In this document: positions 4,659-35,539 of the stretch, in pieces
Layout of the letters: every line of letters begins with the position of its first letter
Position numbering within the stretch: the first letter of the stretch is position 1
Origin: Chiloscyllium plagiosum
Taxonomy: Eukaryota
Direction of reading: 5' to 3'
DNA length: 39,538 nt
Assembly: GCF_004010195.1 (NCBI RefSeq)
Contig: NC_057753.1
Span: 11,730,050 to 11,769,587, forward strand
Translations under genes and position numbers: made by a program
The notes under the pieces: generated by a model
Databases searched by the model: none
What the model saw: the letters and a program-made list of their open reading frames with translations, nothing else
Told to the model about the DNA's origin: nothing

Positions 4659-5297
4659 TCAATTGTGGACAATCCTGATTAACAGGAGGGTCCAACCCCT
4701 GCAGTCACTTTCTGAACTCGCTGGTGTCTCAGCATTTGGGATGACTGAGCAAATCCCTTCCCACAGACCGAGCAGCTGAAAGGCTGATCCACACTGTGGA
4801 CCCGCTGGTGTGTCAGCAGCTGGGATGACTACGGGAATCCTTTCCCGCACACGGGGCAGGTGAACGGCTTCTCCCCCCGTGTGAGTGCGCCGGTGCTCCT
4901 GGAGGTCGCTCGTCTGCCTGAAGGTCTTCCCGCAGGACGCGCACCCGTACGGGCCCTCCTTCGTGTGGAAGTAGTGGTGCGACTGGACAGCATCTATCTG
5001 ATCGAACCTCTCCCCGCACACGAAGCAAGTGAACGGCTTCTGCCCCGTGTGAATCCGCTGGTGCTCGGTGAGCAGGGAGGAAGACTTGAAGCCATGCCCG
5101 CAGGTCGTGCAGCTGAACGGCTTCTCCTCGGTGTGGACCCGCTGGTGCAGGGAAAGGCCGGACGACTGAGTGAACCTCCTCCCGCACTCGGAGCAGGTGA
5201 ACGGCCTCTCCCCGGTGTGAATGCGCCGGTGTATATCCAGCCGGGACGAACAAGTGAACCTTTTACCGCAGTCCTCACACTTCCACGGTTTCTCCAT
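4659..5297 (-). CDS. C2H2 zinc-finger protein ZNF-A: 5 intact fingers, then frameshift (possibly decaying)
   Basis: MEKPWKC start, five C2H2 units with TGERPF-type linkers; extra C in run 4873-4878 shifts frame; the original frame also has TAG in finger 6; AATAAA on minus strand at 4504-4509. Confidence 0.85.
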
Positions 5298-5405
5298 GGT
5301 GCGGGTGACCCGTTAGACAGTCAGTTGAAGCCACACTCAATCTCTATCCTCTGTGACTGATGTGCTGCTTTTCTTCGGCTGTGTAACTGGTCAGAGCTTT
5401 TTCCA

Positions 5406-5609
5406 GGAGAAAGTGAGGACTGCAGATGCTGGAGATCAGAGCTGAAAATGTGTTGCTGGAAAAGCGCAGCAGGTCAGGCAGCATCCAAGGAGCAGGAGAA
5501 TCGACGTTTCAGGATTCCTGAAGAAGGGCTCATGCCCGAAACGTCGATTCTCCTGCTCCTTGGATGCTGCCTGACCTGCTGCGCTTTTCCAGCAACACAT
5601 TTTCAGCTC
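5406..5609. mobile_element. Fold-back Penelope-derived insertion with TSD
   Basis: Perfect 72-bp inverted arms 5439-5510 / 5538-5609; TSD TCAGAGCTTT(T/C)TCCA at 5391-5405 and 5608-5622. Confidence 0.85.
5518..5545 (+). ncRNA. Minimal type I hammerhead ribozyme core (Penelope family A)
   Basis: CTGAAGA-A-GGGC-TCAT-GCCC-GAAA-CGTC; palindromic ACGT helix III; stem I weak. Confidence 0.65.
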
Positions 5610-6009
5610 AGAGCTTTCTCCACCCTGGAATACTCTCACTCAGGTCATGTATTTTCAGTCTCAGCAAAGTTTGAAATCATTTCCCCGCAGGCAGAACCGA
5701 GAAATGACTCTCTCTTTCCACGTTCAGACGCCTTTGATCTTCACCTCTTGATGAATGCAGTCACTCTGAAAGGTGTTAATGTGATGATGGGGGTTGACCT
5801 CCCTATCTCCAGTGCCCTGCAAAAGGAGTTTATAAACAGTCCTCACTTCCAGCACAAATCTTACTCTTACACACTCGTCCTTCCCCTCTGGGCTGCATTG
5901 AAAAAAAAAACAACAAAGTGCTGGATAATTCTTCTCCTTTGAACAGACTGGTGCACTTGGAAGGCAATAAAGATGGTGCTGGTACCACAACATGCATCTA
6001 CACAAAGAT

Positions 6010-6375
6010 GGGGATCGCGCATGCGCCCTATGGGGCAGCCTTTGCGTTGTTAATGCACCCGCGTAAAACGGGGCCATCACAATTGGCAGTAACTCCGGCC
6101 AATAGGGCGGAGAGGGGCGGGGCCAGACCCCGCGTGGGAGCGGCTCGCCCTCCAACCAATCAGAGTGAATGGAGGCGGCCGCAAGCGGGGAGGTCCTCCA
6201 ACCAATGAGAATAAAGGTGGGCCGGTCCTCCAACCAATCGAAGCAAAGCGGCTGGATTAAAACTAGGGTGGGAGGGAAACTGGTCCGCCAACCAATCCAA
6301 GTAAAACGGGCTGGGCCTCCAGCCAGTAGCAGGCAACGGGGCGGGGCTGGTCCTCCAACCAATGGGAATGAATCG
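6010..6375 (-). promoter_or_regulatory. CpG-rich promoter of ZNF-A with CCAAT array, GC boxes and NRF1-like site
   Basis: CCAAT at 6099, 6156, 6202, 6234, 6292, 6359; GGGGCGGGG near 6114 and 6338; GCGCATGCGC near 6018. Confidence 0.75.
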
Positions 6376-6444
6376 GGAAACAAAGCCAGAAGTTAAAAAT
6401 CACCCAACACCAGGTTTTCGTCCAACAGGTTTATTTGGAAGCGC

Positions 6445-6473
6445 TAGCTTTCGGAGCGCTGCTCCTTCATCAG
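6445..6473 (-). ncRNA. Minimal hammerhead core (family B), stem I mismatched
   Basis: Reverse complement CTGATGA-A-GGAGC-AGC-GCTCC-GAAA-GCTA. Confidence 0.6.
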
Positions 6474-6511
6474 GGGGTTGTGGAGTACACGATCATAAGA
6501 CACAGAATTTA

Positions 6512-6787
6512 TTAGATTACATTACAGTGTGGAAACAGGCCCTTCAGCCCAACAAGTCCACACCGACCCGCCGAAGCGCAACCCACCCATACCCCTACAT
6601 TTACCCCTTACCTAACACTACGGGCAATTTAGCATGGCCAATTCACCTGACCTGCACATCTTTGGACTGTGGGAGGAAACCGGAGCACCCGGNNNNNNNN
6701 NNNNNNNNNNNNNNNNNNNNNNNNTGAACCCTGGTCTCCAGCGCTGTGAGGCAGCAGTGCTAACCACTGTGCCACCGTGCCGCCCAC
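6512..6787 (-). mobile_element. HE1 SINE (left copy of head-to-head pair; contains N gap)
   Basis: Reverse complement of HE1 from TTAGATTAC tail to CCGCCCAC head. Confidence 0.9.
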
Positions 6788-6794
6788 AAAGTTA

Positions 6795-7117
6795 GTGGGC
6801 GGCACGGTGGCACTGTGGTTAGCACTGCTGCCTCACAGGACCAGAGACCCGGGTTCAATTCCCGCCTCAGGTGACTGTGTGGAGTTTGCACGTTCTCCCC
6901 GTGTCTGTGTGGGTTTCCTCCGGGTGCTCCGGTTTCCTCCCACAATCCAAAGATGTGCAGGTCAGGTGAATAGGCCATGCTAAATTGCCCGTAGTGTTAG
7001 GTAAGGGGTAAATGTAGGGGTATGGGTGGGTTACGCTTCGGCGGGTCGGTGTGGACTTGTTGGGCCGAAGGGCCTGTTTCCACACTGTAATGTAATCTAA
7101 TCTAATGTAATCTAATC
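6795..7117 (+). mobile_element. HE1 SINE, full length (right copy)
   Basis: A box TGGCACTGTGG, B box GGTTCAATTCC, V-domain, (TAATC)n tail. Confidence 0.92.
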
Positions 7118-7524
7118 TTATAGCAAGTTTACAGTGTGATGCAAGTGAAATCATACATTGAAAAATACCTTGATTGTTTGTTAAGTCTCTCATCTGTTAG
7201 AATGACCATGATAGTTTCACTCCTTTGATATGTAAATCACAAAACTTTTTTTTAGAAGTAACATTCGCAGGTTAGTTTTAACAATTGGTGTCAGCCCAGA
7301 TAAGATCTTAAGATGTTGAAGGTGTCTGTCCCCTGTGTTTTGTTGTCTGTGCCATAATGTTTAGACTGATTCTAATCTAAGAAGTGAGTTGACAGAGTCT
7401 TACATGGATTCATGCAGTTTTTGAGCAAGGTACAATGTAACTCTGCAAGTACAAATTCACCCCACAAACGTATATGTGGACATGTGGGATTTTGGGGTTT
7501 TTTTTCAACCAAACTCATACACGC

Positions 7525-8520
7525 TGATCAGATATCTAAATTAACCTAGCCCCATCTGCCAGCACTTGGCTCACATCTCCCTCAACCCTTCCCATTCATA
7601 TACCCATCCAGATGCCTTTTAAATAGGGGAAGCAATGGCCAGGTGGTATTATCACTGGACTGTTTATCCAGAGACCCAGCTAATGTTCTGGGAATCCAGG
7701 TTGCTAGGGCAGATAGTGGAATTTGAATTCAATGAAACAAGATCTGGAATTAAGGGTCTAACAATGACCGTGAATCCATTGTCGATTGTCAGGAAAACCC
7801 ATTTGGTTCACTCATTTCCTTTAGGGAACGAAACTGCCATGCTTACCTTGTCTGACCTACATGTGACTCCAGACCCAAAGCAATGTGGTTGACTCTTAAC
7901 TGCCCTCTGGGCAATTAGGGATGGGCAATAAATGCTGTGCCCAGCCAGTGGTGCCCTCATCCCATGAATGAATAAAGAAAGCAAAAATATTGTAATTGTA
8001 CCAGCCTCCACCACTTTTTCTGGCAGCTCATTCCATACATGCACCACACTCTGCATGAAAGAGTCACCCCTCATGTCCCTTTTATATCTTTCCCCTCTCA
8101 CCCTGACCTTATGCCCTCTAGTTCTGGACTCACCCACCCCAGGGAAAAGACCTTGTCTATTTACCCTATCCATGCCCCCTCATGATTTTATAAACCTCTA
8201 TAAGGTCACCGCTCAGCCTCCAATGCTCCAGCCTCTCCCCGTAGCTCAAACCCTCCAACCCTGGCAACATCCTTGTAAATCTTTTCTGAACCCTTTCAAG
8301 TTTCACAACGTCATTCGGGCAGAAGGGAGACCAGAATTACACACAGTGTTCCAGAAGTGGCTTAACCAATGTCCTATACAGCCGCAATATGACCTCCCAA
8401 CTTCTACACTCAGTGCGCTGACTAATAAAGACAAGCGTACCAAATGCCTTCTTCGCTATGCTGTATACCTGTATACCTCCACTTTCAAGGAGCTATGATC
8501 TCGCACTCCAAGATCTCTTC
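7525..8520 (-). mobile_element. CR1/HER1 LINE 3' fragment
   Basis: Minus translation SRTRGH..VWNELPE; same 3' tail as other copies. Confidence 0.85.
7626..7985 (+). mobile_element. Second tRNA-derived SINE family nested in CR1
   Basis: TGGCCAGGTGG A-box-like head; tail GGGCAATTAGGGATGGGCAATAAATGC...A-rich; flanked by AAATA duplication; homologous to 26229-26490. Confidence 0.7.
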
Positions 8521-8825
8521 ATTTCAGATGTATCTTAAATGACGTTTAAGCAATTAAGGACTGACAATAATTCCTAGCCAGCAATGCCCTTATCCCAAAA
8601 ATAAATTCAGAATCTCATCCCAGTTGTCTCAGCCTGTGGATCCATAGCAATGTGCTTGACTCTGAATCTGCTGTCTGCCCCAATTAGAGAAGGGAAATGA
8701 ATCCCATGAACGAATAAAAATCAAGTCGTCAGAACACAAATTCCTCAACCACTTCACAATCCACTACTCTGTCCCTGATCTCCCGTTGTCATTCCAAAAT
8801 CCTAAAGCATTTTGTCACATCACAA

Positions 8826-9307
8826 CACGGTGGCTCGGGGGTTAGTGCTGCTGCCTCACAGCACCAGGGACCCGGGTTCGATTCCAGCCTCGGACAACTG
8901 TCTGTGTGGATTTGCAAATTCGCGTGGGTTTCCTCCAGGTGCTCCGGTTCCCTCCCACAATCCAAAGATGTGCAGGTTAGGATGGATTGGCCGTGCTAAA
9001 TTACTCATAGTGCCCAGGGATGTGCAGGTTAGAGTGGATTGGCCGTGCTAAATTACCCATAGTGCCCAGGGATGTGCAGGTTAGAGTGGATTGGCCAAGG
9101 TAAATTACCCATAGTGCCCAGGGATGTGCGGGTCAGGGTGGATTGGCCATGCTAAATTCCCCATAGTGCCCAGAGATGTGCAGGTGAGGTGCATTTGTCA
9201 GGGATAAATGTAGAGTAATGGGGAATGGGTCTGGATGGGTTAATCTTCAGTGGGGCAGTGTGGACCTGTTGGGCTGAAGGGCCTGTTTCCACACGGTAGG
9301 GATTCTA
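8826..9307 (+). mobile_element. HE1 SINE with internal 52-bp tandem expansion (4 units plus a partial)
   Basis: GATGTGC unit starts at 8967, 9019, 9071, 9123, 9175. Confidence 0.88.
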
Positions 9308-9399
9308 AGCTCAGAAGAATGACTGTCTGACTGAATGAATACAACAGCTGATACATTGAGTGAATGAATGAATACCATGAAACTCCTAAATGCTTAGCC

Positions 9400-9600: not shown

Positions 9601-9644
9601 TTCTTGACAACGGAGCTTCGTTTTGAATCAACTTTAAAAGAGGC

Positions 9645-10838: not shown

Positions 10839-11261
10839 TCACTCATGAGCCTGTTGGTGTTTCAGCAGGTGGGATAGCTGAGCGAATCCCTTCCTGCACA
10901 CAGCACAGGCGAACGGCCGCTCCCCGGTGTGAAGCCGCTGGTGTATCAGCAGGTTGCACGACTGAGAGAATCCCTTCCCGCACACAGAGCAGGTAAATGG
11001 CCTCTCGCCGGTGTGAATGCGCCCGTGTGTCTCTAGGTGCTGCAGGCGAGTGAACCCCTTCCCACACTCGGGGCAGACGAAGGGACTTTCCCGGGTGTGG
11101 GTACGCTGGTGTCTGTGCAGGTGGGATGAGTCAGCGAACCCTTTCCCACACTCGGCGCAGGTGAACGGCCTCTCCCCAGTGTGACTGCGTCGATGGATCT
11201 CAACCTCAGATGGGGTTCGGAATCCCTTCCCACAGTCCCCACATTTCCACGGTTTCTCCAT
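10839..11261 (-). CDS. C2H2 zinc-finger protein ZNF-B, 5 fingers (alternative in-frame ATG at 11348)
   Basis: Open frame [14 protein letters not shown]...HQQAHE*; five complete fingers with canonical linkers; acceptor CTGACAG ending at 11648. Confidence 0.88.
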
Positions 11262-11617
11262 AGTGTGAGGATTGGGCTGATGCTGGTCGTCTACATAAAG
11301 AACACACACATCAGTTTCCCCCCTGCTATGAATGATATAAATATTCATCAGCCTGTGTAAGCTTTTTCATCCAGTCCCTCTCACTCAGGATTGTAACTGG
11401 TTCAAGGCCCTTCCACAGTCAGTGCGCTGAAACATTCTTACTCCTGAGTGTACGGGCATCTTGGTACTCTTGCAGTCTCATCAATGTTTGAAATCTTTCC
11501 CACAAACAGAACAGACAAAGGTACTCCTCCCAAAGACTGATGGTACTCAGGTCCGTTTGAATCAAGTGACTCCGCCAGATCTTGAAGTGATGTTTCCAGT
11601 CTGGGAATACTCTCATT

Positions 11618-11891
11618 TTAAGATTCTGCAAATGGAGATTACAAACCCTGTCAGTACGGGATAGAAATGCGTGAACAGACATCTCTAGTTTCTGCAGAAC
11701 ATGGTTTTCCCTTCTTCCCGATAGCTGAAAATGTCCCGTCCCACATACCCTCTCTTAAGATTCTGCAAATGGAGATTACAAACCCTGTCAGTACGGGATA
11801 GAAATGCGTGAACAGACATCTCTAGTTTCTGCAGAATATGGTTTTCCCTTCTTCTCGATAGCTGAAAATGTCCCGTCCCACATACCCTCTC
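11618..11891. repeat. 137-bp direct tandem duplication including the ZNF-B splice acceptor
   Basis: 11618-11754 repeated at 11755-11891 with about 2 substitutions. Confidence 0.9.
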
Positions 11892-12439: not shown

Positions 12440-12607
12440 AGGAGAAAGTGAGGACTACAGATGCTGGAGATCAGAGCTGAAAAATGTGTTACTGGAAAAG
12501 CGCAGCAGGTCAGGCAGCATCCAAGGAGCAGGAGAACCGACGTTCGATTCTCCTGCTCCTTGGATGCTGCCTGACCTGCTGCGCTTTTCCAGCAACACAT
12601 TTTTCAG
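12440..12607. mobile_element. Fold-back Penelope-derived insertion with TSD
   Basis: 64-bp inverted arms 12477-12540 / 12544-12607 (2 mismatches); TSD TAAA(A/C)GATGAAATT at 12426-12439 and 12608-12621. Confidence 0.85.
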
Positions 12608-13030: not shown

Positions 13031-13269
13031 GAGCCTACCTGTAGCCTTGGGGCCTCCAGCTTGCGGGTGAATCTTCCCCATCCACCTTCCAGGGTTTCCG
13101 TCTTGATCAGAGCTTTACTGATTCCCACGCCCCTCCCAAAGTGTTACTCCTTATTTATTATTTCCCTCTCCCCTGCCTCCTCGAATTGCACGGCTAGAGT
13201 TGACTCCAGTGTCTCTCTGCCCCCAACCCCCAACATCCCACCGCCTCTGACTGCAGTAGCCATCGCTCC

Positions 13270-13425
13270 CTGTACCAGCTGAGCACAGCTTCCGGGAACA
13301 GTGTCGCGCACGCTCAGTCAGGCCCCCTGGGGCGGAGACCCGGGACTCGATGCACTTGCGCGGCACAACCGCGGCGATGGCGATAGGCCGTATTCACACG
13401 CGCGGGGCGTGCTGGGTAACCTTCC
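13270..13425. promoter_or_regulatory. CpG-rich putative bidirectional promoter between ZNF-B (-) and ZNF-C (+)
   Basis: Local CpG cluster, GGGGCGG box, candidate donors on both strands (TGG|GTAACC + near 13416; CAG|GTAGGC - near 13039). Confidence 0.5.
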
Positions 13426-13624
13426 CTCCATGTGTTACATTGCAAATGCAAGAATCTCTGGCAGGGCTGGGAGCAAGAGATTCCTGAATTTTTTTTAAAC
13501 CAGTTCCGAAGTTCGAGGGTGGATGTTTGAGACTATCAATCAGCACAGCCCGCGCGAAACCCGCAGCAAATAATTTATCTCCTGGGAAACATTTATGTTG
13601 TCCACTGAATATTGTCAGTGTTTT

Positions 13625-14183: not shown

Positions 14184-15364
14184 AGTCGGGACAGTGAGTG
14201 GCCCGGATGGGGAGCTTGCGTGGGCTGGTGTTTTCATCTGTCTGCTGCCCCCCTGTCTTTCTAAATGCAAGCGGTCAGGAGGTTGGAAGGTGCCGTTTAA
14301 GACCTTTAGTGAATTTCCGAAGTGTGTTTTGTTAGCGCTTGACAGCGCCAGGGACCCCAGTTCGATGCCAGCCTTGGGGGCAACTGTCAGTGTAGAGTTT
14401 ACACGTTCTCCCACAGAGTCCAGACATGTGCTGGCTCGGAGGAGTAGACAATGCGGAGTTATGCGGGCAGGGTGTGGGTCTGGGTCGGATGTCTCCCGAG
14501 TCTGTACAGACTGTAAGGCATCAGTGGTTGAGAGAGTGGATGCATGTGCATGTTATTTTGTCCTGGATGGTTATAGAGTGAGAGAGGTCTCCAGCACGAG
14601 AGGAAGGCCCTTTGGCCCATTGAGACAAAAACAAGCAACTATTCTACTCCTATTTACCTGCACTTGGCTCACAGCCTTGTTTGCCTTGACATTGTTAGTG
14701 CATATCTAAATACTTCTTAAATGTGACGAGGATTTCTGCCTCCACCACCCTTAGAAGCAGCGGGAGCTGAGATGACTGAGCTCTAACAACCACAACCAAC
14801 TTCATTTGTGCCAGGTATGAGTCCTACAAGCGAAGCGTTTTCATTCCCCAAATTCCTCAGTTTTGACAGGAATCCTTGATGCTGCACTCAGTCAATTCTC
14901 ACCTCACCTCTGGAATCCAGCTCTCTTGACCCTGTTTGAACTGAGATTGTGATGAAGTCAGGAACTGAGTGGCCCTGGCAGAATCCAAACTGGCTGTCAC
15001 TGAGCAGGTTATTGCTGAGCCAGAGCTGCTTGATAGCTCTGTTGATGACAACTTCCATCACTTTCCTGCTGGTGGAGGGTAGGCTGATGGAGTGTCCAGT
15101 TTAGTTTGTCCTGCCTTTTTTGTGTACAGGACACATTTGGGCAACTTGCCACTGAGTCAGGTTTGTGCCAGCGTTTTGGCTAGACCGGAAAAGCTGAGCT
15201 AGGGCTGAGGTATATCTGGAGCAGAATTCTTCAGCGTTGGTAAAATCCTGTTACCAGGCCTGGGGAGGGGAACGGAGGATTTGTAAACACCAAACTCACA
15301 CCCACAAAAAGTGTTGGTCTCTTTTTGAATTTCTAACCTAAAGTTGTCTACAATCTTCCTGCAG

Positions 15365-15578
15365 AGTAGAACCAGAAGATTGACAGATGTGAAGGTGAGG
15401 TCAAACGCCACGTTGAGATTTGACTGGGGTCACTCATTTCTTCAGGATCTGAACGTCATAAGTCTTGGAACATGGAAGGACAAAAGGTTTGTCTGTTCTG
15501 CCTATGGGTGGGGGATTTCAAGTGTTAGTTTGAATGGAAAAGCGCTGTGATTCACAAACGTGGTCAGGTCAACTCCAG
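15365..15578 (+). other. Probable non-coding exon derived from a ZNF exon leader (fossil finger)
   Basis: Acceptor CTTCCTGCAG (15364), donor CAG|GTAAGC (15579); GAACATGGAAGGA..TTTGTCTGTTCTG matches ZNF-B and ZNF-D leaders. Confidence 0.5.
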
Positions 15579-15980: not shown

Positions 15981-16481
15981 AAAATTCAGCCCATTGAGTC
16001 CAAGTACTGGGGACAGAGAGTCTGAGTGTGATGGGGTTTTACAGCTTTGGGAGAGTGAGAGGGGATAAATATTGATAACAATTAGATTAGTTGGTAAATT
16101 ACTAACTCGGTCTGACCGTGATGATTTCTGTAATGCCCTTCTACAGGGAATTCAAAAGGGGAGAGGTTACATTCAGAAGGCTCGAATCAAACAACACAGC
16201 AAGTCACTTGAGACATCAGGACCTGAATATCATCAGCCATTGCATATGGAAGGGGAAGTGCGTATCTCTTTGCTCTGACTTTGAGGATGCATTTTAAGGG
16301 TCAGTGTGGCTGGAAAAAGTACTGAGGGACGGACACACACACACGTGTGAGAGTGTTCCAGTGCAGCAGTGAGCGTGGAAGGACCTTTAACCAGTTACAC
16401 AGCCTGAAGAAAATAAAACACACCATTCAAAGTGTCTGCACACAAGGATTGAACCTGAAGAGACAGATGGACACCAGCTCC

Positions 16482-16718
16482 ATGGTGAAACTGTGGAGAC
16501 GCGCGGACTGCGGGAAGGGATTCAATCACCCATCTCGGCTGGAATTTCACCGTCGGGCTCACACTGGGGAGAAGCCGTGGGAGTGCGGGGACTGCGGGAA
16601 GGGATTCAATTATCACTACCTGCTGGAAACCCATCAACGCAGCCACACCGGGGAGAGGCCGGACATGTGCTCCGAATGCGGGAAGGCGTTCGCTCAGTCG
16701 GCCTGCCTGATGTCACAC
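16482..16718 (+). pseudogene. Truncated C2H2 zinc-finger pseudogene ZNF-C
   Basis: [10 protein letters not shown] (first Cys lost), one intact finger, third finger broken at LMSHP by a LINE-tail-like sequence; acceptor CTTCTACAG at 16146. Confidence 0.75.
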
Positions 16719-18409
16719 CCTTCTGAAAGCAGCTCTCAAATTTCAAAACCTATTGTTGAGCTCGCCCTGTGTGCACCTTCTCCGCACCTGTAACATCACA
16801 TCCCTCGCTCTGTTCTATAACCCTCTGATCTCTGTGCAGCACGATCTGCCTGTACTGAAAACTTTTCACCGGCCTGTCAGTGTCTGGATTATTAAGCAAC
16901 AGGACTCAGATTATGCATGTAACAGGAAGCTCGTTATTAATGTAATTGGTCTCTGGGCATTGCCGTGACAGGGCATTAATGACGACACAAAAGCGGTTGG
17001 AAAGGCTAGAATTAGCCAGGATTAACCCAAGAGTCCACAGAGGGTTGAGAGAGTGGATGTGGGAGTACTGCGTGTGAAAACAGGCTCTGGCTATACATAG
17101 AGAGTAAAGAAAGTGGGTTATTTTACCAGTGAAGCCAAAAGGGTGCAGAGGAGTCGTGATAAGGATTCAAAGTCATGAACAATTCCAACAGAGTAAGTGA
17201 GGAGAAAGTGTCTCCGGTGCGACACCGAGATATCGAAGGCTCTAGGCTAAGTGCTGGAACGTGGGATTAGAATACAGAGGAATCTCAACATTCTGAATAT
17301 TAATTGCCTGAATTTTGGACTATCTGAGGAAGATCTCAAGGTCTCATAAAAGCGTTCCATCAAAGAGGTGTTACCAACACTGGTGTGACAATCATATTTT
17401 CTGTTGACAATGATTAAAAGTTGAAGTCGGCTTACTGAAGTGCTGCCAAGAACAGTCCTGGGCATTGTTGGGAGCACAGGCACCACTTCCAAATGACTGA
17501 CCTCCCTCCCTCCCCTCTCTCTCTCCAAACAAAGACAGACAGAGTGACGATCTGGGCAAATTCAGAACACTGAATATTCTCAAATACAGACCCCTGATCA
17601 TCTCCCCAACATTGTACAGGGCAGAGCGGAACCTTGTTGACTGGCCCACTGTGCTGCTGCCTACTCTCCTGAATGGGGAGTGGACTTGCTCTGTCAATCC
17701 CACTGAAGTGAAGCAGCGGCGGGGAGAGGCTACAGCAATGCTGCAGGTTCCTTGCACACAAGTGTGTATCTGCTCAGGAACAAACCCCTGAGACACAGGG
17801 AGGGAGCAAGGCAAGGCAGAGTGAGGAAAACTCCCGAGTCCCAGAGGAAAGGCATTGAATCAGTCATCTGAATAATCAATTGTCCGTACGAAATACTGCC
17901 CGCCCATCTCATTCAGATAATCAGATCCTCTGCAGTTAGCTGCTTGCTTTAGACTGGCACAGACCCCCGATGGGCTGAAGGGCCTTTATCTGTGCTGTAG
18001 ATCTCCATGGCTCTGAATAGGAGGGGACTTTGCAGAAGAAAGGAAGATTAGAGAAGGGGCAGTAGTTTGTGTAATGGTGGGGTTGAGAGTTTTGTTTCCC
18101 CCCCCCCCTCAGGTCGGGGGAAGACGGTGAATGTGAAGATGAAAGAGAGACAACCACAAACATTGCCTGTGAATGTGGGCGTTTGCACAGTCATTGGTTT
18201 TGTAGGAGTAAGGTTGAGAGACTCGGAATCGGGCCTCGTTGGAAAGGTGAGCTCTGACAGGTTATAACTGGAGAGAAACAGGAGAAAGGTACGAGCGGAG
18301 GTTTTCAAAAAAATACCTTTGGGGGGGGAAAGCTGCCTGTTGATTCATGGTATCTGATCGGATGGCCTCAAGGTAGTCTTAGTGACACATTTCATGAGCT
18401 CCTGACACT

Positions 18410-23151: not shown

Positions 23152-23995
23152 CAGTGACAGAGCAGTATGGCATGGAAACAGACCCTTGGGTCCAACCAGT
23201 CTCAGCTGAGCATAATCTCAAAGTAAAGTAGTCCCACTTGCTTGCACTTGGCCTATCTCTCTCCAAACGTTTCTCCTGTAAATACCTTTTAAATTGTTGT
23301 AACTGCACACACATCCACTTCCTCTGAAAGTTCAGTCGACTCGCAATCCATTTTCCATGTGAAAAACAATTGCCTCTCGTGTCTTTTTAAAAAATGTCCC
23401 CCCCTCACCTTAAACAATGGCCCCCTAATCTTGAAATGGCCCACCCTAGGGAAAAGACTCTCGAGATTCACCTTCCACGCTCCAGTGAAACAGGTCCCAG
23501 CCCATCCAGCATCTCCTTATAGCTCAAAACCCTCTGTCCCCGGCAACATCCTGACACATCTCTTCAACTGAATAATATCCTTCTGATAACAGGGCACAGT
23601 ACGGCAGAAGAGACCTCACCAACGTCCTGTACAACTGCAACGTGACGTTCTCAGCTCCTACACTCAAAGGTGTGAGCAATGAAGAAAGTGAGGACTGCAG
23701 ATGCTGGAGATCAGAGCTGAAAATGTGTTGCTGGAAAAGCGCAGCAGGTCAGGCAGCATCCAGGGAACAGGAGAATCGACGTTTCGGGCATGATTCCTGA
23801 AGAAGGGCTCATCCCCGAAACGTCGATTCTCCTGCTCCTTGGATGCTGCCTGACCTGCTGCGCTTTTCCAGCAACACATTTTCAGCTCTGAGCAATGAAG
23901 GCAAGCGTGCTAAGTGCCTTCTTAACCACCCTGTCTATGTGCGACGCAAAGAGTTATGTACCTGAACCCCTCGGTCTCTCAGTTCTACAACAGCA
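23152..23995 (-). mobile_element. CR1 LINE 3' fragment with nested fold-back element
   Basis: CR1 tail CATGGAAACAGACCCTT and degenerate ORF2 C-terminus. Confidence 0.75.
23685..23888. mobile_element. Fold-back Penelope-derived insertion with TSD and hammerhead core (23797-23824)
   Basis: 77-bp inverted arms 23712-23788 / 23814-23890 (2 mismatches); perfect TSD TGAGCAATGAAG at 23673-23684 and 23889-23900. Confidence 0.88.
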
Positions 23996-25044: not shown

Positions 25045-25830
25045 TCACTCATGAACTTGCTGGTGTCTCAGCAGATGAGAGGACTGAGTGAATCCCTTCC
25101 CACACTCAGAGCAGATAAAAGGCCTCTCCCCGGTGTGAACCCGTCGGTGTCTCAGCAGTTCAAACGACTGAATGAACCCCTTCCCGCACTCCGAGCAGAT
25201 GAACGGCCTCTCGGCCGTGTGAATTCGCTGGTGTCTCAGCAGTTGGAACAACTCAGTGAACCCCTTCCCGCACTCCGAGCAGGCAAACGGGCTCCGCACG
25301 GTGTGAATTTGTTGGTGTCTCTGCAGGGTACAGGAGCGGGTGAACCTTTTCCCACACGTCACGCAAGGGAAAGGTCGCTCCTCGGTGTGGACTCGCTGGT
25401 GTCTCACCAGGCTGGACGACCGAGTAAACCCTTTCCCGCAGACGGAACAGCAGAACGGCCTCTGACTGGAGTGGACGTACCGATGTCTCAGCAGATCCCT
25501 CGTGCTTTTGAAGCTTTTCTCACAGTCAGGACACTTATAAAGCCTCGTATCGGTGTGAACAAGTTGATGTGAAGTGAGGTTACTTAAACAAGTGAATCCC
25601 TTCCCACAGCCAGTGCAGGTGAATGGCTTCTCCCCAGTGTGAACTCGCTGGTGTTCCGTGAGTTGAGATAAACGTGAGAATCCCTTCCCACACTCAAAGC
25701 AGGCGAATGGTTTCTCGCCGGTGTGACTGCGCCGATGGATCTCCAGCTCAGACGGAGTTCGGAATCCCTTCCCACAGTCCCCACATTTCCACGGTTTCTC
25801 CATGATGTGGGCGCCCTCGTGTCTCTCCAT
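25045..25830 (-). CDS. C2H2 zinc-finger protein ZNF-D, 9 fingers (ATG at 25830 or conserved MEKPW ATG at 25803)
   Basis: Uninterrupted frame with nine C2H2 fingers; acceptor GTTCACAG ending at 26132. Confidence 0.92.
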   Translation of the reverse strand: MERHEGAHIMEKPWKCGDCGKGFRTPSELEIHRRSHTGEKPFACFECGKGFSRLSQLTEHQRVHTGEKPFTCTGCGKGFTCLSNLTSHQLVHTDTRLYKCPDCEKSFKSTRDLLRHRYVHSSQRPFCCSVCGKGFTRSSSLVRHQRVHTEERPFPCVTCGKRFTRSCTLQRHQQIHTVRSPFACSECGKGFTELFQLLRHQRIHTAERPFICSECGKGFIQSFELLRHRRVHTGERPFICSECGKGFTQSSHLLRHQQVHE

Positions 25831-26228
25831 GATGAATCCTTGTCCAGGCACACGTGGTCGGTCTCTTCTCGGGGAATGGTGTGATGTATCCTTCAGACTA
25901 GTTAAAGCGATTTCTGCAATCAGTCCATCGAAACAGTCTCAGCGGAGCGTGCATGTCTCGGCAGTTTTCCAATCATACTGATGTTTGAAATGCCCCCACG
26001 GGGAAGACAAATCGTTCTCCTTCCATGTTCAAAAGCTGACGATATTCGGTAACTGATGAACTGAATGACTCTCCAAGATCTTGGCTTGATGTTTGGTTTG
26101 TATTTTGTGATAAGATTTTGAAATATCATCACTGTGAACACAGGATAGAATTTCAGAATGGACAATTCAAATTACTATTAAATATTTTTCTCCTCTGGCC
26201 CCACTAAAGCTGTAAATTCCCATCTCAC

Positions 26229-26772: not shown

Positions 26773-26954
26773 TATTAGACGTTCGCAATACATGATGGAC
26801 TGGCCAGAGAAAACCTCATCCCATGAGTGATGAAGGATAGAAAAAGAAGCACTTGCCTCTCTGTTTGTACCAGAAGTTTTGCCTAAGCACACTCCAGCTT
26901 GACCTTCACGCTGCCGCTATTTCTTAATAATTTGGTTACTGATTTTACTGATTG

Positions 26955-27565
26955 CGAAGCCCGTCCCGCCCTCTGAACCATTAATTTCGTTTTCAATAGG
27001 TCAGGCGAGAGCAATGGCAGCGCCTTTACCCACCATCCCTCGCGGTGGGGAATGCCCCCTATTCTGGCCACGGGAGAGCAGGTGCGCAGGCGCAGTACCA
27101 CCCAGCGGCCGGAGCATGCGCACTGACCGCCAACACCAGGGGGGGCCCAGAGACGCCGTGTTTTTTTCACCCTCTCATCCGCCGGCGGTGAGGATGCGGG
27201 ACCGCGGGGGGAGCGCCGGCGCCGGCGGAGGGACCGGCAGGGTTTACTAAACACTTACTAAGCAGCCCGAACCTCCGTTGGCCACCTGCGGGCCGGGCGT
27301 TGGGGGAGGGGGGGGGGCCTTTTCACGGGATCGGCTCCCGCCGAACGGCCGCCATCTTGGATCGGCGGGGTTGGGAGCGGTGCGCATGCGTGGCCGAGCG
27401 GGTGACGTAACCAGTGGGGGGCGGGCGGGCGACGTAACCAGCGGACGGGTGACGTAACCAGTGGGGCGGGCGGGCGGGTGACGTAACCGGTGGGCGGGGA
27501 CTCCGGTCGAGTCCGGCTGCTGCCCGCGTTGGGTCCTAGGGTCCGCCCTCTCCCTCAGTGTCACC
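26955..27565. promoter_or_regulatory. CpG island promoter(s) and non-coding first exon of ZNF-D
   Basis: NRF1-like TGCGCAGGCGCA (27083) and TGCGCATGCG (27381); YY1 CCGCCATCTT (27349); 4x GACGTAACC with GC boxes; minus donor GTAAGT at 27258-27253; plus donor GTGAGG at 27188. Confidence 0.8.
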
Positions 27566-27574
27566 TATTCCCCA

Positions 27575-28765
27575 GGGGAAAGTGAGGACTGCAGATGCTG
27601 GAGATCAGAGTCAAGATTAAAGTGGTGCATTGGAGGAGCAGGAAAATCGACGTTTTGGGCAAAAGCCCTTCATCCTTTCCCATTCCTTTGTCAGCCGGGG
27701 CATTGAATACAGGAATTGGGAGGTTAAGTTGCGGCCAAATGGGACATTACTCAGGCCACTACGAGAACGGTGTTAAGTTGGTCGTCATTGATGGACTTGG
27801 TGAGGTCCAGGAAGGGGAGGGAGGTGTCAGCGATGGTCCAGGTGAATTTAAGGTCGGGGTGGAATGTGTTGGTGAAGTTAATGGACTGCTCAACCTCCTC
27901 GCGGGAGCACGAGGTGACAACGATCAGTGTAGCGGGGGGGGGGAATTGGTGCCGGTGTAACGTAGCCTTCCCATCTCCATCTATAACGACTGACTAAACA
28001 CTGACTTTTTTTTAACAAACCCACTGACTCCCACAGCTACCTGGATTACACCTCTTCCCACCCTACCCCCTGCACAAATGCCATCCCGTATTCCCAATTC
28101 CCCCACCTCCGCCGTATCTGCTCCCAGGAGGACCAGTTCCATCACAGAACACACCAGATGGCTTCCTCCTTTTAAAGACCATAATTTCCCTCCCCACGTG
28201 GTTGAAGATGCCCTCCAATGCATCTCATCCATGTCCCGCACCTCCACCCTTGAACCCCAACCCTCCAACTGCAACAAAGACAGAAACCATCCCCACACCA
28301 GTCCTCACTTTCCACCCTACCAACCTCCACACAAACCATGGGTGGCACAGTGGTTAGCACTCTTGCCTCACAGCACCAGAGACCTGGGTTCAATTCCTGC
28401 CTCAGGCAACTGCCTGTGTGGAGTTTGCACATTTTTTCCTCCGGTTTCCTCCCATAGTCCAATAGTGTGCAGGTTAGGTGAATTGGCCATGCTAAATTGC
28501 CCGTAGTGTTAGGTGAAGGGATAAATGTAGGGGAATGCTTATGGGTGGGTTGCTCTTTGGAGGGTCGGTGTGGACTTGTTGGGCCGAAGGGCCTCTTTCC
28601 ACACTGTAAGTAATCTAATCTAATCTAAACCGCATCATCCGCTGATATTTCCGCCACCTACAAACGGACCCCACCACCAGGGATATATTTCCCTCTCCAC
28701 CCCTATCTGTCTTCCGCAAAGACCGTTCCCTCCATGACTACCTAGTCAGGTCCACGCCCCACCCC
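27575..28765. mobile_element. Penelope-like element: terminal repeat plus RT fragments in both orientations
   Basis: Minus: INFTNTFHPDLKFTWTIADTSLPFLDL; plus: KPTDSHSYLDYTSSHP..NAIPYSQF..LRRICS. Confidence 0.8.
28340..28628 (+). mobile_element. HE1 SINE nested in Penelope RT
   Basis: A/B boxes, V-domain with small deletion, (TAATC)n tail. Confidence 0.88.
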
Positions 28766-28852
28766 CCCCACCCCCAACAACCCACCTTCCCCAACCCATT
28801 CCCCAGTGGTAGTTGTGTCCTCTAGTGGATTCACGGAGGCATCAATACAACG

Positions 28853-30495: not shown

Positions 30496-30516
30496 TTTGA
30501 TTAAATTTTAAAAATA

Positions 30517-30708: not shown

Positions 30709-30805
30709 TATAAACCATAATTACTAAGTTAGCCCTGGAGCACAGTCTTTTTAGAGCGAAAAGGCAGGACTATTTCTTGGGTCTGTAGACTATGAAGGAG
30801 CGAAG

Positions 30806-31547
30806 ATGGCCTTTAATAGAGTGATATGCTCTTACATTGGTCATTTAGGGAGCGTTTCAGTTTTACTGATGATCATGTCTGCAGGAATCTGTCCGTTAGT
30901 TGCGAATCCTCTCAGATTGCAGGGATCGTTTGGAGCGGCAGTGCTCAGTTTACGGGAGCCGGGGGGAATGTGATGGGTGGCAGTTATAGCAAGGGAGAAA
31001 AGCCGCAGATACAGTCCGAGAGATGGGTTAGCTCCGGGAAAGGTGTGAGATGGAGGTAGGTAGCGCAGGAGTCTTCTGTGGCTATCCCCATTTCAAACAA
31101 GGATGCTGTTTTGGAAAATGTTGGGGGTGATGGACTCTCAGGGGAATGTAGCACAAACAGCCAGGTTTCTGGTATCGAGGCAGGCTCTAGTGCAATGAGG
31201 GGTACGTCGGGTTCCAAGAGATCGATTGTAATAGGGGACTCTCTAGTCAGAGGCACAGACAGATGTTTCTGCAGCCAGCAGCGAAAAATCAGAATGACGT
31301 GATGCCTCCCTGGTGCCAGGATTAAGGAGGGTGCAGAATGTACTCAAGGGGGAGAGGGACCAACAGGAGGTCATTGTACACGTTGGAACCAATGACTTAG
31401 GAAGGGAAAGGGATGAGATTCTGAAGCGAGAATATAGAAAGGTAGGCAGGAATTTAAAAAGGAGGTCCGTGAGGGTTGTAACATCTGGATTACTCCCGGT
31501 GCTACGAGCTAGTGAGGCTCGGAATAGGAGGATAGAGCAGGTGAATG
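30806..31547 (+). mobile_element. CR1 ORF1 (SGNH esterase-like), disrupted
   Basis: IVIGDSLVRGTDR and VIVHVGTNDL motifs; RVVTSGLLPV. Confidence 0.85.
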
Positions 31548-31876
31548 TCAAAGGGTGGGGTGCTGGAAAAGCACGGCCTGTCAGTCAGCGTCCGAGGAGC
31601 AGGAGAACCGATGTTTCGAGCATACGCCCTTCATCGGGAATGTTGAGGGGTGTCCAAAGGGGGCTGAGAGATAAATGGGAGGGGGGAGGGGGGGGAGAGG
31701 TGGGGCGAAGGGAAGGTAGCTGGGAATGTGATATGTAGTTGAAGGTGTGATTGGAAGTGATAAGTCAGAGGGATGGGTGGAGCGGATAGGTGGGAGGGAA
31801 GGAAGATGGACAGGCAAGACTGGTCAAGGGGATGGTGCCAAGTTGGAGGCTTGGCATTGTGGTAAGGAAGGGAGAG
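31548..31876 (-). mobile_element. Penelope terminal repeat and 3' UTR inserted in CR1 ORF1
   Basis: GTGCTGGAAAAGCAC..GAGGAGCAGGAGAACCGATGTTTCG..CCCTTCATCGGG (degenerate hammerhead). Confidence 0.7.
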
Positions 31877-32700
31877 NNNNNNNNNNNNNNNNNNNNNNNN
31901 NNNNNNNNNNNNNNNNNNNNNNNNNNNNNNNNNNNNNNNNNNNNNNNNNNNNNNNNNNNNNNNNNNNNNNNNNNNNNNNNNNNNNNNNNNNNNNNNNNNN
32001 NNNNNNNNNNNNNNNNNNNNNNNNNNNNNNNNNNNNNNNNNNNNNNNNNNNNNNNNNNNNNNNNNNNNNNNNNNNNNNNNNNNNNNNNNNNNNNNNNNNN
32101 NNNNNNNNNNNNNNNNNNNNNNNNNNNNNNNNNNNNNNNNNNNNNNNNNNNNNNNNNNNNNNNNNNNNNNNNNNNNNNNNNNNNNNNNNNNNNNNNNNNN
32201 NNNNNNNNNNNNNNNNNNNNNNNNNNNNNNNNNNNNNNNNNNNNNNNNNNNNNNNNNNNNNNNNNNNNNNNNNNNNNNNNNNNNNNNNNNNNNNNNNNNN
32301 NNNNNNNNNNNNNNNNNNNNNNNNNNNNNNNNNNNNNNNNNNNNNNNNNNNNNNNNNNNNNNNNNNNNNNNNNNNNNNNNNNNNNNNNNNNNNNNNNNNN
32401 NNNNNNNNNNNNNNNNNNNNNNNNNNNNNNNNNNNNNNNNNNNNNNNNNNNNNNNNNNNNNNNNNNNNNNNNNNNNNNNNNNNNNNNNNNNNNNNNNNNN
32501 NNNNNNNNNNNNNNNNNNNNNNNNNNNNNNNNNNNNNNNNNNNNNNNNNNNNNNNNNNNNNNNNNNNNNNNNNNNNNNNNNNNNNNNNNNNNNNNNNNNN
32601 NNNNNNNNNNNNNNNNNNNNNNNNNNNNNNNNNNNNNNNNNNNNNNNNNNNNNNNNNNNNNNNNNNNNNNNNNNNNNNNNNNNNNNNNNNNNNNNNNNNN
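31877..32700. other. Assembly gap
   Basis: Run of N; a second small gap lies at 6693-6724. Confidence 1.
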
Positions 32701-33370
32701 GTCTCCTTCCTATCGGAAAGATGTTGTGAAACTTGAAAGGGTTCAGAAAAAATTTACAAGGATGTTGCCAGGGTTGGAGGGTTTGAGCTACAGGGAGAGG
32801 CTGAACAGGCTGGGGCTGTTTTCCCTGGAACGTCGGAGGCTGAGGGGGTGACCTGTTTTATAAAACCATGAGGGGACATGGATAGGGGTAAATAAACAAG
32901 GTCTTTTTCCCCTGGAGTGGGGGAGTCCAGAACTAGAGGGGCATAGATATAGGGTGAAAGGGGAAAGATATAAAAGGGAGCTAAGGGGCAACCTATTCAC
33001 ACAGAGGGTGGTGCGTGTGTGGAATGAGCTGCCAGAGGAAGTGGTGGAGGCTGATACAATGACAGCATTTAAGAGGTGATTGGGGACATGAATAGGAAGG
33101 GATTGGAGGGATGTGGATCAAGTGCTGGCAAACGGGACGAGATTAGGTTGGGATATCTGGGTCACCACGGATGGGGATTTGGATCAACGGGGTTTGTTTC
33201 CATGCTGTATGAACCCATCAGGAATGGCAAAGAGCTTATGCCCGAAACACCGACTCTCCTGCGTCTAGGATGCTGCCTGACCTCCTGTGCTCTTTCCAGC
33301 TCTTTCGACTCAGTTCCGTTTGGCACAGACTGGTTGGACCGAAAGATCTTTCTCCACGCTGTATGACTCT
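32701..33370 (+). mobile_element. CR1/HER1 LINE 3' end with a small Penelope fragment in the tail
   Basis: SPSYRKDVVKLERVQKKFTRMLPGL; Penelope piece at about 33228-33305. Confidence 0.88.
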
Positions 33371-33819
33371 GTGGTGATTTTGACCTGAGGGTCACCACAC
33401 CTCGGGCGAGGGGAGAGTGGACAGGGAAGAGGGCCCCGCTTTGGGGTTCGGTGCTCACTGGAACGCTGATTTCTGGGACCTGGATGAGCGGGAGAATGCT
33501 GGGTAGGGGGTGTTGAGAATGTGGCACGAGGTGGGTCAGCCCGGCTGAAGTAGGATTTGGTCGGGCGCTTAGTTCCAGAATCCCTGTCCTGTGCGTGTAG
33601 AGTTTGATGCGGAGGTGTTAGACTGAGGTGTGTAAAGTCAAAAATCACACGGCGGCAGGTTACGGTCCAGTGGGTTTATTTGAATCCATCAGAGTTTGGT
33701 AACCCCACCCCCACCCAGCTCCTTCCTCGGGCAGCTGACAGAGGCTGGGAAAGCTTGCAGTTTCACATGACCGTGTTGGAGTGTAACTCAGTGTCATATG
33801 GTTTGTGACCTTGTGTTGA

Positions 33820-34374
33820 GGTTGCACGTTCTCCTCGCGTTTGCGTGGCTTTCCTCCGGGTGCTCTGGTTGCCTCCCACAACCCAAAGATGTGCAGGTTA
33901 GGGTGGATTGGCCGTGCTAAATTACCCATAGTGCGTTAGGGTGGATTGGCCGTGCTAAATTACCCATAGTGCCCAGGGATGTGCAGGTTAGGGTGGGTGG
34001 GCCATGCTAAATTACCCATAGTGTCCAGGGATGTGCAGGTTAGGGTGGATTGCCCGTGCTACATTACCCATAGTTTCCAGGGATGTGCAGGTTAGGGTGG
34101 ATTGGCCGTGCTAAATTACCCATAGTGCCCAGGGATGTGCAGGTTAGGGTGGATTGGCTGTGCTAAATTACCCATAGTGTCCAGGGATGTGCAGGTTAGG
34201 GTGGATTGGCCGTGCTAAATTACTCATAGTGCCCAGGGATGTGCAGGTTAGGGTGAATTGGCCATGGGAAATGCAGGATTACAGGGATAGGGTGGGGTGG
34301 CGGGTCGCCCTTCGCAGGGTCAGTGTTGACTCAATGGAGTGAATGGCCTGTTTCCACCCACACGGCATTCCATG
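33820..34374 (+). mobile_element. HE1-type SINE with 52-bp V-domain unit expanded about 7 times
   Basis: Unit starts at 33978, 34030, 34082, 34134, 34186, 34238 plus two partial units from 33888. Confidence 0.88.
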
Positions 34375-34588
34375 ACAACGCCTCCCGGATTCCGGACTGG
34401 TGCTGGCAGTGACGTTGACCCTTCCGTCCTCTTTTGCAGGTTGAGAAGGAGCTGGGGACCTTGACCAGGAAAGTCAATCCACACCAGATGAAGAGCTGAC
34501 TGGGGGGGGGGGGGTGTGGGGGTCAGAGCACCGTTGACCCGCGGCAGGAGGGACGGGCTGGGCGTAGGCGGCGCCCACCCCCCCGCCC

Positions 34589-35539
34589 ATGGCCATGGAG
34601 AAGCCTTGGAAGTGCGGGGACTGTGGCAAGGGCTTCAACTACCCGTCGCTGCTGGAAATCCATCGGCGCAGCCACACCGGGGAGCGGCCGTTCACCTGCG
34701 GCGCCTGCGGGAAGGGCTTCGCCCAGTCCTCCCACCTGCTGACCCACCAGCGGGTCCACGCCGAGGAGAGGCCGCCGGCAGGCGAGGAGGGGGGCCCGGA
34801 CCAGCCGCCCCAGGCCGCCCAGAGCCGGTTCCGCTGCTCCCACTGCGGCAAGGGGTTCAGGCGGTCGCAGAATCTGGTCGAGCACGAGCGCACGCACACC
34901 GGCGAGAGGCCGTTCGTCTGCTCCGCCTGCGGCAAGGGCTTCACCCGCTCCTCGCACCTCGCCACCCACCGGCTGGTGCACACCGACCGGCGGCCCTTCC
35001 GGTGCTCCCAGTGCGAGAAGAGCTACAAGACCACCAGCGACCTGCTGATCCACCAGCGGGTCCACAACGAGGAGCGGCCCTTCCGCTGCGCCGCCTGCGG
35101 GAAAGGGTTCACCCTGCTGTCCAGCCTGCAGAAGCACCAGCGCTCGCACACCGGCGAGCGGCCGTTCACCTGCCCGCTGTGCGGCAAGTCCTTCATCTAC
35201 CTGACCAGCCTCAGCTCGCACCAGCTCGTCCACTCGGACCGGCGGCCCTTCCGGTGCTCGGAGTGCGACAGGGGCTTCAAGACCACCAGCGACCTGCTGA
35301 GGCACCAGCGGGTGCACACCGGCGAGAAGCCCTTCGCCTGCGCCGACTGCGGCAAGCGCTTCACCCGCTCGTCCCACCTGCTGGCCCACCGGCACACCCA
35401 CACCGGGGAGAGGCCCTTCGCCTGCCCGGAGTGCGGCAGAGGCTTCGCCCACTCCGCCCACCTGCTGCGGCACCGGCAGCTCCACCAGCAGGGGCCGGGG
35501 CCGGGCCTGGCCGCCCCTGCCCGTCCCGCCCAGGACTGA
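34589..35539 (+). CDS. C2H2 zinc-finger protein ZNF-E, 10 fingers (2 + spacer + 8)
   Basis: 316-aa open frame MAMEKPWKC...; Kozak GCCATGG; acceptor CTTTTGCAG at 34439. Confidence 0.93.

Follow-up and report, generated by a model that had tools for sequence, protein, structure and literature searches.

The window that we analyzed, a stretch of 39,538 nucleotides from Chiloscyllium plagiosum, harbors five paralogous C2H2 zinc finger genes, A to E, between positions 4659 and 35539. A preliminary description of this DNA had presented them as finger-only genes in which a Met takes the position of the Gly in a TGEKP linker. All five were recovered, each with this Met, and none of the five open reading frames (ORFs) gave a Pfam match to KRAB, SCAN or BTB. 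They are tandem (Kruppel-type) C2H2 genes, with 28-aa repeats, the spacing C-x2-C-x12-H-x3-H and TGEKP-type linkers. The finger behind the Met, hereafter the signature finger, is recognized by a Trp before the first Cys, Tyr at helix position -1, Pro at +1 and Glu at +5. All splice sites given below, acceptors as well as the donor, are predicted from sequence.

Gene A (minus strand, 4659 to 5297) starts with MEKPW at ATG 5297 and encodes five intact fingers, followed by a frameshift in a G run. This one-base shift after finger 5 places finger 6, which contains an in-frame stop, and finger 7 in the other frame, so that the gene appears to be decaying, or else the break is partly a homopolymer error. 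Its leader (5298 to 5851, minus strand) holds a decayed linker, a finger remnant and an acceptor-like AG before base 5816, and is split by a dispersed repeat at about 5405 to 5615. The CpG-rich segment at 5851 to 6350 on the same strand is a candidate promoter, with motifs that we take to be CCAAT boxes, GC boxes and an NRF1-like palindrome. Gene B (minus strand, 10839 to 11261, ATG 11261) has five fingers in an open frame. Its leader (11262 to 11817, minus strand), in which a 137-bp unit in tandem duplicates the acceptor region, contains a clear half-finger remnant, scoring 14.5 bits against 9.2 for the best of 1050 shuffles.

A sixth copy (plus strand, 15326 to 15558) consists of a leader only. 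It matched the leader profile with an E value of 5e-19, a finger-unit scan found no finger unit behind it, and by its sequence it is a dead fragment. Gene C (plus strand, 16482 to 16793, ATG 16482), preceded by a leader at 16091 to 16481 with an acceptor-like AG before base 16147, has a broken signature finger (MVKLW) that lost its first Cys, then a second, intact finger of the signature type, joined by an ordinary TGEKP linker, and a third finger that is truncated. Gene C is decayed and likely dead.

Gene D (minus strand, 25045 to 25803, ATG 25803) encodes nine fingers and 252 aa counted from MEKPW. Its leader (25804 to 26155, minus strand) has an acceptor-like AG before base 26131 and an unbroken linker frame, in which an out-of-frame upstream ORF of 17 codons begins at ATG 26026. 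Gene E (plus strand, 34595 to 35539, ATG 34595) encodes ten fingers and 314 aa, of which the first 61 residues are identical at 59 positions to the Chiloscyllium punctatum gene model P0007. The short leader of E (34440 to 34594, plus strand) lies behind a strong acceptor-like site, and stops close its finger frame. Genes D and E lie head-to-head, with a CpG island (26851 to 27750) between them. On the minus strand, this island would provide D with a promoter and a short first exon, with a donor-like GTAAGT at 27258 and what are presumably GC boxes, CRE-like repeats, an NRF1-like site and a YY1-like site (27359-27349). A search of Rfam gave no match at the gathering score, and a complex prediction for self-association of fingers 1 and 2 of E scored 0.00.

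Open (B, D and E), decaying (A) and decayed (C) genes thus stand side by side, as the preliminary description had noted. Six copies in 31 kb, intact and dead in one cluster, is the expansion that marks the class of zinc finger proteins (ZNFs) that survey transposable elements (TEs). The "young TEs" said to surround the genes were not borne out. Dispersed repeats make up at least 31% of the window; most of this sequence is 80 to 90% identical to its best in-window copy, and by this rough proxy for age, only 783 of 12,147 repeat bases reach 95% identity to an in-window copy.

Genes A, B, C and D share homologous sequence in the 330 to 520 nt 5' of the ATG (nhmmer with single sequences, E values from 2e-17 to 1e-5), with the remnants of an acceptor, a linker and broken fingers; the same nhmmer profile detected no homology in the leader of E. 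From these remnants, we read the MEKPW finger as one that was internal to a longer, older exon. In 5/5 copies, the family acceptor is either out of frame with the fingers or separated from them by stops. The earlier claim that all copies start at MEKPW held for A only (1/5 window copies), where the linker Met is the first in-frame ATG. An earlier in-frame ATG lies 2 codons upstream of the linker Met in E, 5 in C, 29 in B and 9 in D (ATG 25830, with A at -3 and G at +4). Since the D leader has five ATGs ahead of the coding frame, one of them in strong context, translation of D would be lowered. A stop after a QTSV motif in the leader is common to D and 3/21 proteins found with the linker profile. 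We considered conserved stop-codon read-through and rejected it; gene C and P0019 have a Trp there, and the leaders are also frameshifted.

Relatives were found in 12 elasmobranch genera (sharks, rays and skates), and 29 of 41 proteins contained 38 WKC-type fingers. The linker Met was present in only 13 of these 38, with Thr, the second commonest residue, Gly or others in the remaining 25, and the signature was finger 2 in 9/38. We therefore abandoned the Met as a family-defining trait; by its distribution, it marks a truncated subfamily. Galeomorph as well as squalomorph sharks have this MEKPW form. To the extent that the range could be seen, the family is restricted to elasmobranchs: the signature was found in 0/242 fingers of 23 non-elasmobranch hits, and no chimaera matched among the relatives retrieved. 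The chondrichthyan family suggested in the preliminary description stands, within this narrower range, as a lineage-restricted birth-and-death family with a selectively constrained finger. DNA pattern scans for relatives gave 0 loci in viral contigs and, in metagenome contigs, 0 and then 1 locus (L001), which we discarded as a chance match with no finger around.

A set of 21 proteins was collected with the linker profile, without selection on finger 1 and after dropping P0017, an unrelated repeat protein. Of these, 11 read in frame into the finger array, and, judged by eye, 10 of the 11 have the signature finger, intact or damaged. In P0004, P0020, P0026, P0029, P0036 and P0044 an intact finger lies in frame between the linker and the signature finger, and the signature is kept in rays whose upstream finger has decayed. 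The second Cys of the signature finger is missing in P0029, P0034 and P0066, and P0022 has no signature finger altogether. Shark gene models that NCBI calls "zinc finger protein 239-like", "850-like" or "271-like" belong to the same family; these names are automatic, and many of the models join several neighboring genes or TE pieces. As far as sequence comparison can tell, this is a real elasmobranch tandem-ZNF expansion, of which we found no earlier description in the literature.

We next consider the conservation of the signature finger. Among the window copies, finger 1 has a mean pairwise identity of 0.75 at non-structural positions, a value that none of the 1152 ways of choosing one internal finger from each gene reached (maximum 0.64, mean 0.37). 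With B left out, it was 0.68 vs a maximum of 0.65 in 288 combinations. The signature finger is under stronger purifying selection than fingers 2 to 5: its dN was 0.138, its dS 1.21 and its dN/dS 0.11, compared to 0.29-0.50 for fingers 2 to 5, based on 6 non-independent pairs of 26 codons from window copies only, with internal fingers that may not be positional homologues. This is in agreement with the earlier statement that finger 1 is conserved while later helices vary. Because dS is 1.21, the conservation acts at the protein level, and gene conversion was rejected as the source of the similarity. At non-contact helix positions finger 1 was no tighter than finger 2 in the window (ratio 0.35 vs 0.32). 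At contact positions, where a TE-surveillance family would be expected to show positive selection, pN was 0.54-0.68 in fingers 2 to 5 vs 0.35 in finger 1, with ratios that are unstable or saturated and fingers that are paralogous.

In the relatives, Pro +1 was present in 35/38 WKC-type fingers, Glu +5 in 35/38 and Tyr -1 in 29/38, a conservation that is inflated, since finger 1 served as the query for most relatives and a single species of Heterodontus supplied many of them. Other fingers had Pro +1 in 18/335 cases. Every one of the 38 fingers that combine Pro +1 with Glu +5 lay at the N-terminal edge, 29 as the first in the run, 9 as the second and none deeper. The preliminary description had named Pro at +1 and Ile at +6 as the usual helix residues; the Pro was confirmed, whereas +6 was divided between Ile (18/38) and Thr (14/38). 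Position +3 was variable as well (E 12, Q 10, K 7 and L 5 of 38). A variable +3 and Ile or Thr at +6 also fit a DNA-contacting finger.

KRAB, SCAN and BTB were likewise without a match in the 12 relatives scanned, and Pfam gave no N-terminal dimerization domain of the SCAN-, BTB- or ZAD-ZNF kind in the window ORFs or these 12 relatives; in the searches for relatives, KRAB (PF01352) was listed for tetrapod hits only. The family is nevertheless probably not wholly effector-less, as it had been defined, because 4/5 batoid (ray and skate) relatives carry an N-terminal DPKL...PxVVLRRL stretch with a PxVxL (HP1-box-like) motif. The batoid N termini had no match in the window (best E value 0.054) and none in the PDB, and their Atlas hits were all below 0.9; the whole-protein Atlas search returned generic C2H2 clusters. 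By eye, the batoid and shark N-terminal stretches appear homologous through the linker, and shark models that reach 5' of the linker share no N-terminal sequence.

We propose that the older exon had the order acceptor, linker, finger(s), TGEKP-type linker, signature finger and variable fingers, an arrangement in two parts like that of KRAB-ZFP and FiNZ genes. In a shark ancestor, the MEKPW subfamily would have lost all that preceded the signature finger and would thereafter have expanded, with translation likely beginning at or just before the Met in the old linker. The signature finger would be a protein-docking module, kept because it carries the function of the N-terminal domain of KRAB or FiNZ proteins, and the variable fingers that follow are expected to recognize DNA, which may be that of transposons. 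TE surveillance, with finger 1 as the dock of a co-factor, is thus something that we infer by analogy, as the preliminary description did. We hold the family history, namely, a decayed N terminus and expansion, to be quite probable. The chances that the signature finger has a protein-interaction role are slightly short of even, and transposon repression as the main job of the family is somewhat doubtful. For the whole reading of an elasmobranch-wide family with decayed 5' parts, a docking signature finger and DNA-binding variable fingers, the scales are evenly balanced.

Instead of docking a co-factor, the signature finger could be a nucleic-acid anchor, a cap for folding or phasing of the array, or partly an edge effect, in which a unique flank pins the first repeat and internal repeats are shuffled. 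We find this rather unlikely. The variable residues at +3 and +6, the constant place at the N-terminal edge and a gradient of conservation with finger 2 next (pN 0.23 vs 0.35-0.40 in fingers 3 to 5) would fit, but the synonymous sites of finger 1 are as diverged as those of the other fingers, the last fingers are not conserved (0.42 vs 0.75), and the signature survives as finger 2 and in the rays with a decayed upstream finger.

Two alternatives remain. In the first, a coding exon further 5', bearing a short motif such as the batoid PxVxL stretch, would be spliced to a cryptic acceptor near the Met, which would then be internal, and the MEKPW copies would not be effector-less. Against this stand the lack of a window match to the batoid N termini, the few codons open before the Met in A (5) and E (9), the shark models that reach 5' of the linker, which by eye have no common N terminus, and the lack of a KRAB, SCAN or BTB match in all 12 relatives scanned. 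We judge it improbable, even though 4/5 batoid relatives share the stretch, weak AG sites are open to the finger frame in B (-64 and -29) and D (-110), and 25/38 fingers have another residue for the Met. CpG decay can turn ACG into ATG. The frequent Thr at the Met position fits such an origin, and with the many upstream ATGs in the leaders and the state of the six window copies (one leader only, one broken and one decaying) it would suit a subfamily that is mostly a graveyard of 5'-decayed, barely translated duplicates, with function left to members that have an N-terminal motif or whose upstream finger is intact. This possibility appears more improbable still: right after leaders full of stops, D and E still have 9 and 10 intact fingers, fingers 1 to 4 have a dN/dS below 0.5 with dS near or above 1, and the MEKPW form occurs in both shark lineages.

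Returning to an elasmobranch family with a docking finger, one study reports hundreds to thousands of tandem-ZNF ORFs in sharks and rays, whose genomes are rich in retroelements (PMC10547256), and another reports KRAB-ZFPs from sarcopterygians only (PMC10380595). A family-defining finger is a new handle: one profile annotates the family, one short region becomes a target for knock-down in a pool, like that carried out for FiNZ, and 28 residues can serve as bait in a co-factor search. Furthermore, the decayed leaders record how a gene family can shed its N terminus and still expand. Should the finger turn out to lack a partner, the family would still be useful as an annotation, though an ordinary one. 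At its most speculative, our proposal would make the family the elasmobranch counterpart of KRAB-ZFPs and FiNZ-ZNFs, with hundreds of transposon-reading ZNFs, a finger repurposed as repressor dock and, in rays and skates, a branch whose KAP1-like PxVxL box would bring in HP1 without KAP1 as an intermediary; we think this unlikely. The batoid PRVVLRR matches residues P486, R487, V488, L490 and R492 of the KAP1/TRIM28 HP1 box (PMC12126490). In contrast to KAP1, the motif is here on the ZNF itself, in ray and skate gene models outside the window only, and HP1 binding is putative.

The family resembles the KRAB-ZFPs of sarcopterygians in its clustered tandem C2H2 genes, birth-and-death evolution, an array in one last exon behind a linker and variable DNA-contact residues. 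It differs from them in that there is no KRAB domain and the conserved element is a finger inside the array, and recruitment of TRIM28 is not expected. With the FiNZ-ZNFs of cyprinids (Wells et al. 2023, PMC10547256) it shares a lineage-restricted expansion, one short conserved N-terminal element and candidacy for TE repression, which was shown for FiNZ and is putative for the shark family. However, the element of FiNZ genes, an acidic domain of 28 aa, has a coding exon to itself (PMC10547256), whereas that of the elasmobranch family is a zinc finger preceded by frameshifted sequence. Membership in the FiNZ-ZNFs is very unlikely, given the elasmobranch host and the lack of an in-frame path from the family acceptor to the fingers. 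ZNF146/OZF is a finger-only protein of similar size (10 fingers) that binds LINE-1, and its knock-out did not de-repress L1 in HEK293 cells (PMC8896011), so finger-only TE binders need not be repressors; it is one conserved mammalian gene and not an expanding family. As for Kipferl of Drosophila, a single ZAD-domain gene for which we claim no homology, its fourth finger, ZnF4, is reported to dock the HP1 variant Rhino (PMC11245307). It is thus a case of one C2H2 finger docking an HP1-family protein in transposon control, similar to the role that we propose for the signature finger.

A six-frame scan of the window confirmed the five C2H2 arrays of the preliminary description, namely genes A (ATG at 5297, minus strand), B (11261, minus; five fingers in an open frame), C (16482, plus), D (25803, minus; nine fingers, open frame) and E (34595, plus; ten fingers, open frame). 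In A, the frame shifts within a run of G that follows finger 5, and finger 6 contains a stop; in C, finger 1 lacks its first Cys and finger 3 is cut. Residues 1-61 of E match a Chiloscyllium punctatum gene model at 59 positions and, judged by this similarity, the host is a carpet shark close to the bamboo sharks. The cluster is real, and its earlier reading is partly reinterpreted here.

As had been supposed, finger 1, the signature finger (Trp before the first Cys, Tyr -1, Pro +1, Glu +5), was more constrained than the other fingers. Finger 1 of A, B, D and E, compared within the window and thus free of search bias, showed an identity of 0.75 at non-structural positions, above every one of 1152 internal-finger combinations (maximum 0.64). 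Over six non-independent pairs, finger 1 had a dN of 0.138 and a dS of 1.21 (ratio 0.11), compared with ratios of 0.29-0.50 for fingers 2-5; its synonymous sites had diverged as much as elsewhere. In C, the signature finger is duplicated (16563-16646, plus), the second copy lying behind a normal TGEKP linker; this finger 2 is 71-82% identical in nucleotides to other first fingers versus 54-64% to second fingers.

We then turned to 41 related proteins (37 named elasmobranch models and 4 unnamed). Trp preceded the first Cys in 38 fingers from 29 of them, with Pro +1 in 35/38, Glu +5 in 35/38 and Tyr -1 in 29/38, counts that are inflated because finger 1 was the query that retrieved most relatives and Heterodontus supplies many of the models. 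Helix position +3 varied. Pro +1 is usual, as first described; position +6 is Ile in 18 and Thr in 14 of the 38. As an independent check, 21 proteins were found by a linker profile instead of finger 1; in 11 the reading frame continued into fingers, and 10 of these, read by eye, had the signature finger, with the second Cys missing in three. Loss of this Cys with a largely kept helix sequence was seen in the related models P0021, P0029, P0034 and P0066. The signature spans 12 genera of galeomorph sharks, squalomorph sharks and batoids and occurred in none of the 242 fingers of 23 other database matches. No chimaera protein appeared among the matches, so that, of the chondrichthyan range first proposed, the elasmobranch part is demonstrated.

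Genes A, B, C and D share homology over the 330-520 bases 5' of the Met, which the preliminary description had missed. This leader runs from an acceptor-like site through a linker frame into broken fingers. The finger remnant of B scored 14.5 bits against the finger profile (the highest of 1050 shuffles reached 9.2); those of A, C and D, taken singly, scored inside the shuffle null. The short leader of E did not match the leader profile. In related proteins, this linker stays in one frame with an intact finger and, behind it, the signature finger. Of 38 fingers having both Pro +1 and Glu +5, 29 lead their run and 9 come second. The Met position in relatives holds M in 13 fingers, T in 9, G in 5 and other residues in 11. 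MEKPW therefore marks an N-terminally truncated subfamily: the linker Met is present in the window copies but does not define the family. Nor need all copies start there: A alone has no in-frame ATG ahead of this Met, and the D leader has five earlier out-of-frame ATGs. Galeomorph and squalomorph sharks both have the MEKPW form, which was seen in 0/7 batoid fingers; by parsimony, the longer form, seen in sharks and a skate, would be ancestral.

A sixth family copy (15326-15558, plus) consists of a leader alone, without a finger array. A MEG start, which opens the coding frame in a two-finger subfamily, persists in good context as a short upstream ORF in D (26026-25973, minus) and C (16246, plus), and also in the sixth copy (about 15472, plus); it is possibly a translational control element. 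The acceptor region of B is doubled by a 137-bp tandem duplication (11618-11891, 98% alike).

Dispersed repeats make up at least 31% of the window, mostly 80-90% alike. They include LINE remnants (2605-3003 and 31298-31738, plus) with RVT_1 (E 1e-6) and GDSL-esterase (E 1.5e-4) matches, both below the Pfam cut-off, and an approximately 200-bp MITE- or SINE-like element with an inverted self-match (5405-5615, 23683-23893 and 12440-12603); two of its copies are 96% alike and one lies inside the leader of A. Minisatellites with periods of 37, 52 and 89 bp occupy 1-453 plus 768-1394, 33935-34263 and 36636-37063, respectively; a SINE-like repeat of 300 bp interrupts the 37-bp array, and the 52-bp array derives from the family of that repeat.

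Pfam found only zinc-binding families in the five window ORFs. KRAB, SCAN and BTB were absent from the 12 relatives scanned and from the precomputed domains of 17 elasmobranch matches longer than 550 aa, many of which are several genes joined. In all five copies, stops or shifts separate the family-type acceptor from the finger frame, and a coding exon joined to it from farther 5' would therefore not be read on into the fingers. Some weak cryptic AG sites do have an open path into this frame, chiefly in B and D. A CpG island with promoter-type motifs and a donor-like site lies about 1.1 kb 5' of the D acceptor; judged by sequence, the region would fit a short non-coding first exon. B/C and D/E form head-to-head pairs with CpG-rich stretches between them (13200-13500 and 26851-27750) and possibly share promoters.

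An N-terminal stretch containing PxVVLRRL is common to four of five batoid models (Pristis, Mobula, Rhinoraja and Amblyraja); of the KAP1 residues that PMC12126490 names, five are identical in it. Judged by sequence, it would fit a PxVxL HP1 box, making these proteins candidates for direct HP1 recruitment. In the ray and skate models P0015, P0053, P0074 and P0081, the stretch is followed by a decayed finger and then the signature finger. The motif had no match within the window. The absence of KRAB, SCAN and BTB agrees with the effector-less character first proposed, but given the batoid motif the family as a whole is probably not effector-less.

The variable fingers most likely bind DNA, and the signature finger most likely serves a sequence-independent role. 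It outlived the linker and fingers ahead of it and has stayed at or near the N terminus in sharks and rays, as would be expected of an effector domain. We give its proposed protein-docking role a little less than an even chance. The non-contact helix positions of finger 1 are no more constrained than those of finger 2, and the signature finger is lost or damaged in some relatives, both of which argue against docking. Conservation as an anchor or through an edge effect seems unlikely; the last fingers of the window genes reached an identity of just 0.42 on the measure used for finger 1. That transposon repression is the main job of the family is rather doubtful. PMC8896011 reports that the finger-only ZNF146 binds LINE-1 but that its loss brings no L1 de-repression.

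We found no published description of the family or its finger in a literature search that reached few subscription journals and also took in parts of PMC10380595, PMC11603059, PMC8455134 and PMC12056039; its proteins stand in public databases under generic names. The supplement of Wells et al. (PMC10547256) counts 703-3586 tandem-ZNF ORFs in the 7 elasmobranch assemblies retrieved from it and 475 in Callorhinchus; the main text names no sharks, skates or chondrichthyans, and supplement files 3-5, outside the part covered, could bear on this. Lineage-specific tandem-ZNF expansion is an already known kind. The shark family plausibly works like the KRAB-ZFPs or FiNZ-ZNFs, although it differs from the former in having no KRAB domain and very unlikely belongs to the latter. 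That it is their full elasmobranch counterpart, with the signature finger as repressor-docking domain and a batoid branch recruiting HP1 directly, we consider improbable. What is new is that the conserved element defining the family is itself a zinc finger, that one subfamily has shed its N terminus and that a batoid branch has an HP1-box-like motif; these make the question of KRAB-free transposon control in sharks testable.
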